Of a stretch of DNA of 15,628 nucleotides, positions 1-4,346 are shown piece by piece. The stretch is from an uncultured Deinococcales bacterium (GTDB lineage: Bacteria > Deinococcota > Deinococci > Deinococcales > JAAFIG01): positions 1-15,628 of the forward strand of contig CAXTTL010000110.1 in assembly GCA_964247135.1 (NCBI GenBank). Reading direction: 5' to 3'. How positions within the stretch are numbered: the stretch's first letter is position 1; each line of letters opens with the position of its first letter. The notes under the pieces are model-generated. The model was not told where the DNA came from. It did no database searches and saw only the letters and a list, made by a program, of their open reading frames with translations. A program made the position numbers and the translations under genes.

Positions 1-3000
1 GTACTGCCCTCGAGTGGACCTTTTTGGGCGAGATTGTGATTGACGGGGGCAACCACGGCGGCAGTCACGTCCGGTTTGGGGCGGCGTTCTTCAAAACGGC
101 GTTTTTGCGGCTCGAATTTTGGACGAGGTTGTGCGGGTTGACTCGAAGCGACTGGACTCGAGGCTGTCGGACTTGCGACAACCGAACTCGAGCTTGGAAT
201 TGGCGTCGTTGCGGTTTGTGGGTTTGGATTCTTTGGACGGTTGAATCGGCGGCGCGGGTCGTTGCGACCTTCAATTCGAGGTTCAGTACGAACTTCAGGG
301 CTACCCTCAACTCGAGCCTCCACGTTTGGACGGGGCGTTTGATTCGGGTTTTGGCGCGGGTGCTGGTTTGGATTCGGACGCGGGTGCTGGTTGGGGTTAA
401 CTCGAGCTTGGTTGTTGGGTTGCGTGCTCGGGCGTGAACCGTTCAATTGGTTGTTGCGGGTGTCACCAGCATTGCCACGCTCGTCGGCTTCCATGTTCTC
501 GCGGGTCCACTCGCCAAAGTACAACTTGCGGGCGGTGACCTTGACGGGTCTGGAGTATTCGCCGTGCATTTTACCGTCCAGTACGACCACACGGCGACGG
601 TTATCGCCTTTTAAAGCGGCTGGCTTTTGGACTCCAGCGCCGCCTGGGCGGTTGCGGAATTTTCCCATGGTGTTCTCCTTGACAGGCAGCGCAAGATCAA
701 TCTCGCGCCCGACTGCGTTGACGCGTTCGATGCGAACGCGCACTGGTGTGCCCAGACGGAACATCCGCCCTTGACGACCTTTGAAAGCTTGCGAACCTTG
801 AATGAAGGTGTATTGATCGTCTTTCATGTCCTCGTGGCGCATCAGACCTTCGACGCCATTCTCGAGGGTCACGAACACGCCGAACGGCATCACGCCGCTG
901 ATGTAACCGCGCCAGGTTTCACCAATTTTGCCTTGCGCCCATTTGCACTGGTAATACTTGTTCAGGTCGCGTTCGGCGCTGGTGGCGTTGCGTTCGCGCT
1001 CGCTCACAAACTCGCCCAGTTCGGGCAGGCTTTCGCGCAAAACCTCGCGTTTTTTGTCGTTTAATTTTTGTGCGATCACCAGTTTTAAAACGCGGTGCAC
1101 CAGCAAATCTGGGTAACGACGAATCGGGCTGGTGAAGTGCAAATAATCGCTAAACGCCAGCCCGAAATGACCTTTGTTCTCGCTCGAGTATTTGGCTTGA
1201 CGCAAGCTGCGCAGCAACAACGAGTTGACGGCGCTCTCTTGCGGCGTGCCGCGCACCGACGCCAAAATCTGTTGATAGGCTTGCGGGGTTGGCTCGAGCA
1301 GACCGGCTTGGGTCACGCCCATGCGGTTGAGGGCGTCCAAAAGTTCCTTGAAGCGCGTTTCGGCTGGGACTTCGTGAATGCGAAAAAGCGCGGGCGCGTC
1401 GTTTGCCAGCAAGAACGCCGCAATCAGGCGGTTTGCCAGCAGCATCAAATCTTCGATCAACCCTCGAGCCGTCTCTTCACGCACCGGCACCAGGCGCGGC
1501 GAACCGTCAGGCTCGAGCACGACCTTGACCTCAGACAGTTTGAAGTCCAGGCTGCCGTCGCGGAAGCGTTTTTCGCGCATTTTGGTGGTGAGCTTCAGCA
1601 GCAAATGCAAATCGCCTTCAACATCCCTGGCATGGTCGGGCATGGCGGATTTGCCCTCGGAGAATGACTGAACTTCGTTGTAAGTGAGTCGTGCTTTGGA
1701 GTGAATCACGCTGTTTCGCACGGCGTAATTGACCACATCACCCTCTGGGCTGAGTTCGACCAGCGCCGACACCGTGAGACGGTCTGCGAACGGCACGAGC
1801 GAGCAGACGCCGTTTGACAGACGCTCGGGCAGCATCGGCAGAACTTTTCCAGGCAGGTAAACGCTGGTTGCCCTGGTTTTGGCTTCAATGTCAAGCTTGC
1901 TGCCGTCGGTCACGTAATGCGAGACATCGGCAATATGAACGCCGACCAAGAAATTACCGTTGCCGAGCGGTTCGATGTGAATCGCATCGTCAAAATCTTT
2001 GGCATCCTCGCCGTCAATCGTGAACACGCGCTTGACCCGCAAATCGACCCGACCTTGCAGGGCTTTGACCGGAATCTCGAGCGGAATTTTTTCGGTCTCG
2101 AGCATCACGTCGCTTGGGAATTCGTCGCGCAGGTCAAACTTCACGACCACCGCTTGGGTTTCGACCTCTGGCGAGTCGCTGATGCCGAGCACGCTCGAGA
2201 TTTCACCGAACGGTTCGTCCTCGCCGGTGTTTTCGGGCCAGTGGAGTTTGGCGACCACCCGAGCGCCAGCCGAGAGGCGGTCACGGTAGGGCATCAGCAC
2301 AATGCGGTGCGGAATTTTGTTCTCGTCGGGGCGCAAAATCGCGTAACCCTGCCTGTACTCGAGTGTCCCAACCACTTCGTCGCGGTCACGCTCGAGAATG
2401 CGGATGACCACGCCGCGAGAACGGTTTTGGCTGCGTTCCTCGCGCACGACGACACGGTCGCCGTGCCAGGCGAACAAAGAATCTCTGGCGTCAATGCCAA
2501 ATTCTTTCATGCCTGGGGTTTCGGGTTGCACGATGCCGCCACGGTTGCCAGTCAGGCTGTAGCGCCCAACGACCAGGTTGACATCTCGAGGCAAGCCGTA
2601 AGTGTGACGGCGCACCAGCGTTAAACGCCCTGCGGCGACCAGATTCTCGAGTGAATCCTCGAGTCCCTTGCGTCCGCCAAGACGCTCGTAATCAAAAGCG
2701 GGCAGGCGTTTGGCAATGTCGCGCACCTGATGCGCCCTGGGGTTGGCGCGGAAAAATTCGAGCAGCGCCTCGAGCGGGTCGAGCGGCGCTTTTTGGGTTT
2801 CAAAAATGTTCGTTCGTCCAGCTTTTCGCGCCCGCACGGTCGGCTTGCTGGTTTCTGGCACCGGAATCGGTTTTAAGGTTTCTGCGTCCAGATTCTCGAT
2901 TGGGGTTTCGTCAAGCTGTTCAGGTTCGAGCGAAACTGATTTTGATGTTTCAAGCTCCAGTGGAACAATTGTAGGCTCGAGGCTTACCGTTTCGAGCGGC

Positions 3001-3620
3001 AACAACTCGAGTTGTTGCACTTTGGGAATAATCTTTTTGCGCCCACGGGTTTTCTTGGGTGCTTCAGTCACTTCTGGCGTTGAAGCTTCGCCAACCTTGG
3101 GCTTTACAGGTTCAAGGGTTTCAGGCTCGAACAGCACAGCTTCTGGATCGAGTAACACTTCGGGTCTGGCGCGTCTGGTTTTTGGTTTGAGCGCTGGTGA
3201 CGTGGTGACCTCTACAGGCGCAACGAGAACGGGCGCAGCAAGCAGCGCCCCTACGGTTTTTTGCTTGCTTTGAACTTTGGGTTTGCTTTCAATTTCGATC
3301 ACAGGTTTTGATTCGGTGGTTGCTTCCTCAAGAACTTTTTTGCTGCGTCCTCGGGTTTTAGGCGCGGTTTCGAGTAAGACAGATTCTGGAGGCTCGGGTA
3401 CAACTGGGTTGCTCACCTCGAGCGTGACGGAGTCCTGCACCTCGAGCACCGGCACAACAAATTCAACGGGAGCGGACTTCTTCGCACCTCGAGGGACAGA
3501 TTTCTTCGCTTTGCCGTTCAAAGCGTCCTGGATTTGGGTTGGTTGAGTTTCCTCAACGGCTTTTTTCCTCGGTTTTTTCGAGGCGGGCGCTTTCGCACCT
3601 TTTACAACAGACTGGCTAAT
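1..3620 (-). CDS. rnr: Ribonuclease R (RNB family) with long disordered N- and C-terminal extensions; 3' end lies outside the window
   Basis: Manual translation of the minus frame (codons start at positions = 2 mod 3) showed no stop in the segments I read (3620-2500, the motif regions, 720-1). Catalytic motif FTIDGEDAKDFDDAI at about 2024-1980, then VHIADVSHYV, ATSVYLPGKVLPMLPERLSNGVCSL, HFTSPIRRYPDLLVHR (about 1139-1092) and an S1-like region ending ..REIDLALP (about 690). Start set at ATT 3620 because SD AAGGAG lies 5 nt upstream and an in-frame TGA lies 11 codons upstream. Confidence 0.95.
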   Translation of the reverse strand, partial: MSQSVVKGAKAPASKKPRKKAVEETQPTQIQDALNGKAKKSVPRGAKKSAPVEFVVPVLEVQDSVTLEVSNPVVPEPPESVLLETAPKTRGRSKKVLEEATTESKPVIEIESKPKVQSKQKTVGALLAAPVLVAPVEVTTSPALKPKTRRARPEVLLDPEAVLFEPETLEPVKPKVGEASTPEVTEAPKKTRGRKKIIPKVQQLELLPLETVSLEPTIVPLELETSKSVSLEPEQLDETPIENLDAETLKPIPVPETSKPTVRARKAGRTNIFETQKAPLDPLEALLEFFRANPRAHQVRDIAKRLPAFDYERLGGRKGLEDSLENLVAAGRLTLVRRHTYGLPRDVNLVVGRYSLTGNRGGIVQPETPGMKEFGIDARDSLFAWHGDRVVVREERSQNRSRGVVIRILERDRDEVVGTLEYRQGYAILRPDENKIPHRIVLMPYRDRLSAGARVVAKLHWPENTGEDEPFGEISSVLGISDSPEVETQAVVVKFDLRDEFPSDVMLETEKIPLEIPVKALQGRVDLRVKRVFTIDGEDAKDFDDAIHIEPLGNGNFLVGVHIADVSHYVTDGSKLDIEAKTRATSVYLPGKVLPMLPERLSNGVCSLVPFADRLTVSALVELSPEGDVVNYAVRNSVIHSKARLTYNEVQSFSEGKSAMPDHARDVEGDLHLLLKLTTKMREKRFRDGSLDFKLSEVKVVLEPDGSPRLVPVREETARGLIEDLMLLANRLIAAFLLANDAPALFRIHEVPAETRFKELLDALNRMGVTQAGLLEPTPQAYQQILASVRGTPQESAVNSLLLRSLRQAKYSSENKGHFGLAFSDYLHFTSPIRRYPDLLVHRVLKLVIAQKLNDKKREVLRESLPELGEFVSERERNATSAERDLNKYYQCKWAQGKIGETWRGYISGVMPFGVFVTLENGVEGLMRHEDMKDDQYTFIQGSQAFKGRQGRMFRLGTPVRVRIERVNAVGREIDLALPVKENTMGKFRNRPGGAGVQKPAALKGDNRRRVVVLDGKMHGEYSRPVKVTARKLYFGEWTRENMEADERGNAGDTRNNQLNGSRPSTQPNNQARVNPNQHPRPNPNQHPRQNPNQTPRPNVEARVEGSPEVRTEPRIEGRNDPRRRFNRPKNPNPQTATTPIPSSSSVVASPTASSPVASSQPAQPRPKFEPQKRRFEERRPKPDVTAAVVAPVNHNLAQKGPLEGS
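327..398 (-). repeat. Three imperfect 24-nt tandem units encoding NPNQHPRP / NPNQHPRQ / NPNQTPRP in the RNase R tail
   Basis: Read directly from the translation of the rnr frame. Confidence 0.8.
666..680 (-). promoter_or_regulatory. Candidate internal in-frame translation initiation site in rnr (AAGGAG-6 nt-ATG)
   Basis: Minus strand reads gtcAAGGAGaacaccATGggaaaa. The ATG at 668 is in the rnr frame immediately after the S1 domain. Confidence 0.55.
3231..3254 (-). repeat. GTAG-type REP-like palindrome embedded in frame in rnr (encodes VGALLAAP)
   Basis: Minus strand GTAG-GGGCGCTGC-TT-GCTGCGCCC: a GTAG tag followed by a GC-rich palindrome with one mismatch, the layout of RAYT-associated REPs. 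Confidence 0.6.
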
Positions 3621-3834
3621 ACAAACTCCTTCACCCTGAAAAACTTGTTTTCAGGAAACCCGAGTGCATAATCCGTGACCTCGAGCAAGATCATGTTGCG
3701 CTCATCACGGCTGATGCCGAATGACTCCCACTGTTGGGTAGCGCTTGTTGAGATGGCGTTGTTCTTCACGCAGAACTTAATTCCTTCGGGGGGCTGAAAA
3801 ACGCAGGTACGTTTAAAGTCCTCATCCGAGACCT
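3621..3834 (-). promoter_or_regulatory. Putative ~214-nt structured 5' leader of rnr
   Basis: Lies between the extended -10 (3849-3841) and the ATT start. Contains hairpins at 3761-3776, 3727-3738, 3703-3716, 3676-3693 and 3635-3655. Confidence 0.45.
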
Positions 3835-3840
3835 GAGGGT

Positions 3841-3849
3841 AGTATAGCA
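3841..3849 (-). promoter_or_regulatory. Extended -10 promoter element for rnr (TGcTATACT)
   Basis: Minus strand atTGC-type motif reads aaaaTGcTATACT; an A 7 nt downstream (3834) is a plausible transcription start. Confidence 0.6.
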
Positions 3850-3935
3850 TTTTGGGGCGCCCGAAAACTGCGCCAAATGACCTATTCGCAATCAAGCTCG
3901 AGCAGCACAGCTAAAATCCGTGATTTAGCGTTTGT

Positions 3936-4346
3936 TTAAGAATCCTCGAGCAAATCGCGCAAATACTGTGGAATCGGCACGGTGCGTTTTTCAAAATCGG
4001 TTGCCATGTGCTCGGTAAACCCTTCGGCTAAAAGTAAATTGTCGCTGGCACGTTCAACGGCGTACTCGAAACGAACCATGCGCGATTTTAAACTGCCAAG
4101 TCGGGTGGTTAATATTATTGTGTCGTCAAAGACGGCTGGACGGCGGTATTTCACGCCAACGCTCGTGACCACCAAGTACACGCCGCGCTTCTCGACCTCG
4201 GAATATGGCAAACCCAACTCCTCGAGGAACGCCACGCGTCCCATCTCGAGCCAGATCACGTAATTGCTGTGATGCGCGATGCCCATCGCGTCGGTTTCTG
4301 CATAACGAACCTTGAATTGCAGTTGGGATTGCACCGCTTTTTTCAT
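3936..4346 (-). CDS. Acyl-CoA thioesterase, YbgC/FadM (4HBT hotdog) family
   Basis: Signature VRYAETDAMGIAHHSNYVIWLEMGR and YRRPAVFDD. ATG 4346 (MKKAV..) is preferred over 4379, which overlaps rbfA by 23 nt. Confidence 0.9.
   Translation of the reverse strand: MKKAVQSQLQFKVRYAETDAMGIAHHSNYVIWLEMGRVAFLEELGLPYSEVEKRGVYLVVTSVGVKYRRPAVFDDTIILTTRLGSLKSRMVRFEYAVERASDNLLLAEGFTEHMATDFEKRTVPIPQYLRDLLEDS

Follow-up and report, generated by a model that had tools for sequence, protein, structure and literature searches.

In-frame internal initiation has been described in Escherichia coli for infB, where it gives the isoforms of IF2, and for clpB, mrcB and arcB, the last giving ArcB-C, in the available text of the Ribo-RET preprint (10.1101/520783). 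In these genes a Shine-Dalgarno (SD) sequence and a start codon lie in frame within the open reading frame (ORF), and an N-terminally truncated protein is made from the same mRNA. The arcB site is, in the same text, conserved among species and its product is the C-terminal domain alone (10.1101/520783). Here we describe a comparable arrangement in rnr, the gene for RNase R, in a stretch of 15,628 nucleotides from an uncultured Deinococcales bacterium (contig CAXTTL010000110.1 of assembly GCA_964247135.1; the whole stretch is called the window below). A sequence-only reading of this DNA had pointed to AAGGAG-aacacc-ATG at positions 680-666 of the minus strand, in frame and at the end of the S1 domain, and the site was found exactly so in the sequence and the ORF. 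Its best reading is internal initiation of the infB, clpB or arcB kind. It differs from the E. coli cases in that the product would be a disordered tail with no folded domain, in that it is kept across four families and in that the primary start appears to be AUU in one family. Internal initiation as such is known; what appears to be unusual, judged by comparison of sequences, is the depth of conservation, the host gene and the pairing with an AUU primary start.

The tail in question also has a counterpart in the E. coli enzyme. According to the available portions of a review of E. coli RNase R, its K/R-rich tail and S1 domain bind SmpB and are linked with trans-translation and with control of the enzyme by proteolysis, and the tail is invisible in structures of 30S degradation (PMC12320835). 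The enzyme encoded in the window is similar in carrying an unstructured basic extension past S1, which differs from the E. coli tail in that there is no sequence relation, in being far longer (267 amino acids) and in being rich in P, N and Q. Those portions of the review say nothing of a tail translated by itself. Neither rnr nor RNase R nor the word ribonuclease occurs in the main text of the Ribo-RET preprint (10.1101/520783), and a 2026 review on N-terminal proteoforms in bacteria does not name RNase R in its main text. An internal start in rnr was likewise not found in the available portions of PMC11219805, PMC12320835, PMC2830850, PMC4007540, PMC4229858, PMC2225504, PMC9430589, PMC13515050 and 10.1101/520783, nor was a description of one found in the literature on RNase R in Deinococcus and Thermus thermophilus, as far as its accessible text extends. 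The literature combining RNase R with internal initiation consisted, by title, of circular-RNA and eukaryotic papers only.

The proposed internal start and its conservation

The site follows the last folded domain of rnr and consists of the elements listed here, all on the minus strand.

690..926, minus strand: S1 RNA-binding domain, the last folded domain (Pfam PF00575, residues 866-944; AlphaFold2 block means 80-94)
675..680, minus strand: internal SD sequence AAGGAG (codons Lys-Glu), kept in 15/15 sequences of the window's own family
669..674, minus strand: spacer of 6 nucleotides, aacacc (Asn-Thr), which varies among relatives
666..668, minus strand: internal ATG, the proposed start of the tail, in frame and at the order-disorder boundary
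3..668, minus strand: coding region of the tail proteoform, 222 amino acids in the window and about 267 with the part on contig C207 of the same assembly

Across the internal start the ORF translation reads ..REIDLALPVKENTMGKFRNRPGG.. and the internal methionine is residue 952 when counted from the TTG at 3521, or residue 985 when counted from the ATT at 3620, 8 codons past the S1 match. The ATG at 668-666 is in frame with rnr, and AAGGAG precedes it with a spacer of 6 nucleotides; in both respects it resembles an internal translation initiation site (iTIS). The product, proposed at the outset as having at least 222 residues, does run for 222 amino acids within the window.

The rarity of such a site was evaluated in the genome assembly, which comprises 5.09 Mb at a GC content of 0.527. 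AGGAG was followed by ATG 237, 253 and 190 times at spacings of 5, 6 and 7 nucleotides, as compared with about 42 at spacings of 10-24. As the counts peak at 6, the spacing found in rnr is the modal ribosome-binding spacing of the organism. AGGAG at a spacing of 5-7 precedes 156 of the 2,532 first start codons of long open frames. Internal to long frames, the corresponding figure is 20 out of 15,776 in-frame ATGs (910,490 codons), where AGGAG-N5-7-ATG was counted at a depth of at least 100 codons within open frames of at least 300 amino acids; several of these 20 look like true gene starts. By arithmetic from this count, about 0.03 in-frame motifs would be expected in a gene of the length of rnr, and the internal site is the sole AGGAG-N5-7-ATG of the window's rnr in any frame. 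Rarity of the motif within genes is suggestive and, for a single sequence, not decisive. The 3' end of the 16S rRNA, which holds the anti-SD, was not found in the window's assembly. A promoter scan of positions 1-4000 returned one sigma-70-like site, far upstream at 2995-2968, and no more than were returned from shuffled sequences; the scan, itself a weak one, thus gave no indication of an internal promoter in that region. As a separate observation on the genome, AGGAG occurs 3,347 times on both strands together, where about 10,400 occurrences are expected by arithmetic from the GC content of 0.527, and about a fifth of them (680) have an ATG 5-7 nucleotides downstream. It thus seems that the genome avoids the SD core where this is not in use.

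Conservation was followed by searching the S1-plus-tail protein in 41 related genomes and then in 364 genomes of the phylum, with 343 matched (a tally that includes the unpublished G327, used here for this count alone), and the site region was read in loci from six families. A strict site was defined as an in-frame AGGAG, GGAGG or AGGAGG followed after 5-6 nucleotides by ATG, between S1 and a YFGEW motif in the tail; a relaxed site had GGAG only, a spacing of 8-9 or a GTG or TTG start. Sequences were counted if the end of S1 and the YFGEW motif were both readable, which gave a set of 62. Left out of the counts were the window itself (L001-L003), a fragment that begins past the site (L007), a sequence with the site present and the module masked by N (L036) and four sequences possibly from the same genomes as L004-L007 (L073-L076). 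The motif-bearing records include ribonuclease R of Deinococcus radiopugnans, Deinococcus sp. D7000 and D. misasensis.

The strict site was present in 48 of the 62 motif-bearing sequences. Counted by genus, 14 out of 21 had the strict site, 5 had relaxed forms only and 2 had none. The SD and the start codon are thereby conserved beyond the needs of the protein, as would be expected of an iTIS, and as judged from these alignments the SD and AUG are kept by four families of Deinococcales. The sequence-only reading had proposed that relatives would share a K-E-x-x-M site with AAGGAG kept at synonymous positions. This held throughout the window's own family, where AAGGAG-N6-ATG was found in 15/15 sequences readable at the site and in 5/5 genera. 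The strict site was absent from all ten rnr sequences that lack the tail motif, which come from nine genera of family f2 and from one further genus.

Two further observations were made on the relatives. The tails of family f2 (L028-L031, L063-L067), which have neither the YFGEW motif nor the internal start, end in RRR(V/L)LVFGD and so resemble the first half (RRVVVL.G) of the tail motif. In genus g13, L014 and L022 have no site in the linker, yet AGGAG-acgag-ATG stands in frame within their S1 domain (..RIGDEMEVKI..), and several short database proteins start at that methionine. The g13 motif may be chance, a gene-caller artefact or a relocated start.

Evidence for constraint on the RNA and the rival explanations

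The sequences surrounding the site indicate which level is under constraint. Family f1 and part of f5 have AAG as the codon before GAG, one genus has TGG, and the family containing Deinococcus has CAG or GAG, where the residues become Q-E or E-E. CAG GAG and GAG GAG keep the same nucleotides with other residues, which fits constraint on the RNA and not on the protein; in fact K, Q, E and W at this codon share only its last two bases. The spacer is free to vary. Its residue pairs in the window's own family are NT, FD, SP, SH, SN, NP and HI, and ND, TD, KS, TS, IV, GE, VE, EE and KN occur among further relatives; no spacer or flank position exceeds 63% identity across 38 distinct site sequences. 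The site lies from +4 to +40 codons from the S1 end and from 25 to 148 codons from YFGEW. In L089 a repeat insertion has lengthened the upstream linker and the site has stayed with the tail. In one species (L044) the homologous codon is GTG and AGGAGG is retained. In genus g9 the site reads AAGGAGG-N5-ATG.

Codon choice in the own family points the same way. Within its rnr genes AAG accounts for 15-62% of the Lys codons and GAG for 28-61% of the Glu codons, with AAA and GAA preferred in most, and AAG GAG nevertheless stands at the site in 11/11 genes tested and in four genes added later. The proteins are 34-47% identical in the S1-plus-tail region, so that synonymous sites should be saturated. 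Across 30 rnr genes or gene parts, the motif occurred 3 times outside the linker, two of these at the shared S1 place in genus g13.

We put at about 0.8 the probability that AAGGAG-N6-AUG at 680-666 is an internal initiation site under selection, with a tail proteoform of 267 amino acids as its product. The suggestion that an internal start yields a second product from rnr thus gains support from the comparative evidence, and if it is correct, the site would be a clean example of synonymous-site conservation revealing an internal start. Several points weigh against it. Weaker or non-ATG forms alone were found in 9/62 motif-bearing sequences, and 5/62 had no SD and start at all (L041, L014, L022, L051, L049); the latter are one Deinococcaceae-like genus, 3/4 of genus g13 and genus g27, and the site is therefore dispensable in some lineages. 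One of the ten linkers without the motif (L028) has a relaxed-type match, which shows that Glu-rich linkers can produce the relaxed class by chance. As the strict class is defined by the motif, the invariance of SD and ATG within it is circular and only the variability of the flanks is informative. The joint probability of AAG GAG over the 5 own-family genera, 1.2e-4, takes these genera as independent and is overstated because they are related. The synonymous evidence comes from the own family alone, since AAG and GAG are the default in GC-rich families. Folding was weak in the 50-nucleotide windows at 43 strict sites, where a median of 0.08 of the windows of the same gene fold equally weakly or more so and 26/43 sites were at or below 0.10; this is partly compositional and gives mild support, as the site windows have a GC content of 0.55 and the genes 0.66.

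The same data bear on what else could have kept these nucleotides. A peptide motif, [K/Q/E]-E-x-x-M, might be retained at the S1-tail junction for the sake of the full-length protein, with no initiation taking place there. Glu at -3 and Met are indeed kept as residues in 48/62 sequences, and GC-rich genomes encode Lys and Glu by AAG and GAG regardless. We consider this account unlikely, given that K, Q, E and W are chemically unlike and yet have xAG or TGG codons in common, that AAG GAG is used in 5/5 own-family genera though AAA and GAA are mostly commoner, that the spacing to both neighbouring conserved elements varies widely and that the region is disordered by prediction and has no further conserved residue near the site. 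SD-like sequences have also been proposed to pause elongating ribosomes, which is disputed. A pause of this type, for instance one for folding after S1, would make the AUG incidental, and the location directly after the last folded domain suits it. A start codon would not be needed for pausing, however, and ATG follows the SD by 5-6 nucleotides in 48/62 sequences, always in frame; at the homologous codon of L044 there is GTG. An elongation effect is on these grounds very unlikely.

The tail is a separable unit, and the sequence-only reading had offered, as its own alternative, that the site is the scar of a fusion with a formerly separate gene, whose ribosome-binding site would now be functionless. 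An older annotation of D. radiodurans seems to speak for this, in that it split rnr into DR_0353 (760 amino acids) and DR_0352, where a later genome has one ORF of 1,379 amino acids; the available portions of the source describe the split as a discrepancy in sequence from strain to strain (PMC11219805). The probes for both DR_0352 and DR_0353 were up together in an oxyR mutant table, in the part of that paper available (PMC2225504). Neither the split annotation nor the joint rise of the probes is a demonstration of an independent tail gene. A standalone homologue of the tail was not found when a motif profile was run against 1.84 billion representative proteins. This gave 30 hits, 16 of which were fetched; 15 of these were short (80-369 amino acids), and the fetched hits begin within S1 or at other internal methionines or carry unrelated frameshifted ends, while the long hits that were looked up are RNase R. 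A word-based homologue search at 122-389 amino acids returned one 171-amino-acid fragment only. The hits inspected being RNase R or pieces of it, the scar finds no support and neither does the tail module as a gene of its own. An unused scar would, moreover, not retain 8 nucleotides over four families amid freely varying flanks, and we regard this origin as slightly less probable still than a pause. Chance was the remaining reservation, since the codon pair AAG GAG is common and could stand two codons ahead of a Met by accident. The expectation of about 0.03 sites per gene of this length is not negligible genome-wide. Recurrence at the homologous place in 14/21 genera with variable flanks counters it, and coincidence is hardly credible.

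The tail and the two proposed starts of rnr

Apart from one short element, the tail is of low complexity, and both of its parts are on the minus strand.

507..599, minus strand: conserved linear motif RRRVVVLDGKMHGEYSRPVKVTARKLYFGEW (alignment of 39 sequences; YFGW invariant)
3..506, minus strand: P/R/N/Q-rich low-complexity region, by composition, with a poly-Arg C-terminus that continues on C207

The composition of the 222 amino acids in the window (P 31, R 28, N 22) agrees with the R/N/P/Q-rich region anticipated. The single alignable element, about 30 amino acids long, can be written as RRVVxL..RPVxVT..[KR]xYFG[ED]W, with Y, F, G and W invariant in 39 sequences. It had been described as a small ordered-looking module, and although it is the most conserved part of the tail it was left unfolded by AlphaFold2. 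Modelled alone (39 sequences) it had a mean predicted local distance difference test score (pLDDT) of 65 and zero strands. Modelled with S1 and the linker (28 sequences), the S1 blocks scored 80-94, with strands up to ..EIDLAL, and the motif blocks 51-62, so that by these predictions no confident fold, and hence no autonomous folded domain, was obtained for the motif alone or beside S1. In these models the YFGEW element behaves like a linear motif that is conserved within a disordered chain, and not like an ordered module. In the fragment with S1 and the linker the pLDDT fell from about 90 to about 50 from residue 90 onwards, the internal Met being residue 94. The start therefore lies at the order-disorder boundary and its predicted product is a clean tail free of domains. 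A protein-atlas search with tail residues 1-75 gave a best score of 0.85, to unnamed clusters and below the meaningful level. Docking of the RNase R core (639 amino acids) with the first 63 amino acids of the tail scored 0.00 against a mark of 0.32, which is evidence neither way. For a Thermus-like genus the expected product is as short as about 46-55 amino acids and consists of the motif and a poly-Arg/Lys end, which points to the motif and the basic end as the working unit.

The upstream start of the full-length frame bears on how much of each product could be made. E. coli infC and pcnB have AUU as primary start codons, and AUU starts are weak and IF3-sensitive. In the window, the rnr frame opens after a TGA at 3653-3651 with ATT at its very beginning, preceded by an SD.

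3618..3630, minus strand: probable primary initiation region, AGGAG (3630-3626), tttgt, ATT (3620-3618), conserved in the own family

Before the TTG at 3521, the rnr frame holds no ATG, GTG or TTG, and this TTG has no SD. AGGAG-N5-ATT/ATC opens the frame in 8/8 own-family sequences checked (four genera other than g2; ATC in one genus), which supports the earlier proposal that the gene has an AUU start of its own. Full-length rnr in the window's family thus appears, from these alignments, to start at a conserved SD with AUU or AUC. As in known AUU-start genes, the SD and then AUU or AUC stand at the 5' end of the frame and are conserved. An AUU start has been reported in Deinococcus for infC, in a paper whose available text names four genes, none of them that of RNase R (PMC2830850). 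The present case differs in that the gene is rnr and in that the feature is confined to the window's family; ATG stands at the homologous start in three Deinococcus-like and two Thermus-like relatives.

In the mechanism we propose, ribosomes starting at the weak, SD-preceded AUU would give full-length RNase R of about 1,250 amino acids, and 30S subunits binding the internal SD would start at Met952 and give a nuclease-free protein of about 267 amino acids identical to the C-terminal tail. That protein would have a short basic N-terminus, the motif of about 30 amino acids, a long disordered P/R/N/Q-rich stretch and a poly-Arg end. We infer that the short protein is made and that in the window's family it probably outnumbers the nuclease; the tail may exceed the enzyme because AUU starts are weak and the few elongating ribosomes would seldom mask the internal site. 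The free tail might then bind whichever RNA or ribosome-associated partner the enzyme's own tail binds, and so tune recruitment of the enzyme or compete with it. This trans-acting role, as competitor or regulator at the partner of the enzyme's tail, is the most speculative part of the proposal; it is drawn by analogy with the K/R-rich tail of the E. coli enzyme and we hold it as a tentative suggestion. The fuller picture of Deinococcales rnr as a two-product gene, with a scarce nuclease (owing to AUU in the window's family) and an abundant trans-acting free tail bearing the clade-specific YFGEW motif, is to be taken as equally doubtful. The free tail may act as a decoy on the docking site of RNase R, be it ribosomes, tmRNA-SmpB or RNA, and thereby set the times at which the nuclease can act on these, or may be a scaffold or RNA chaperone in its own right.

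Structured RNA, defective ribosomes and non-stop mRNAs are substrates of RNase R, and access of the enzyme to ribosomes needs control. If the proposal is true, a separately translated recruiting tail would be a new layer of control on RNase R across an order with two genera used as genetic models, Deinococcus and (by inference) Thermus. The proteomes concerned would also gain a hidden protein, in the Thermus-like case an unannotated basic micro-protein of about 46-55 amino acids.

Gene architecture, contig ends and genome composition

The rnr gene is a long minus-strand gene at the start of the window, with an ORF at 3521..3 that is open at its 3' end. Its remaining features are given here, with residues counted from the TTG at 3521 for the Pfam domains.

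1..3620, minus strand: rnr (RNase R), from the probable ATT start to the window edge, with about 45 more codons on contig C207
1074..2051, minus strand: RNB catalytic domain (Pfam PF00773, E 4.9e-108, residues 491-816)
2760..3617, minus strand: K/P/E/T-rich N-terminal extension, by translation, ahead of a helix-turn-helix and cold-shock region

The Pfam architecture is that of RNase R, with OB_RNB at 331-375, CSD2 at 396-469, RNB at 491-816 and S1 at 866-944. The protein has the cold-shock/OB domains, the RNB domain, the S1 domain and the basic disordered C-terminal extension of that enzyme, and Pfam returned no match N-terminal of residue 331. The extension ahead of the RNase R core measures about 255-290 amino acids in the window and in L080-L083. 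It carries repeats of the KTRGR(S/K)KK type in the window and RGRP, GRPKK or GRPRK in relatives, and we take these KTRGR/RGRP-type repeats to resemble AT-hooks.

The first 94 nucleotides of the window are overlapped at 98% identity by the end of contig C207 of the same assembly, with 2 mismatches, so that the assembly break falls within the low-complexity tail of rnr. Since the two contig ends overlap over 94 nucleotides with 2 mismatches, the break points to strain heterogeneity or a collapsed repeat. C207 contributes 45 further codons, ending in ..GADRQRRRRR, followed by a stop and then a hairpin with a T run. The rnr frame probably joins across the two contigs, which would bring full-length RNase R in this organism to about 1,250 amino acids.

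The genome also has a strong bias in its 6-bp palindromes. Several are nearly absent, namely GAGCTC (0), GGGCCC (1), CGGCCG (3), AGGCCT (4), CGTACG (5) and GGATCC (7), where 1,368-1,694 copies of each are expected. CTCGAG, by comparison, occurs 33,925 times in 5.09 Mb, which is 24.8 times the expectation from composition and about 1 per 150 bp. There are 95 copies of it in the window, 24 of them inside rnr.

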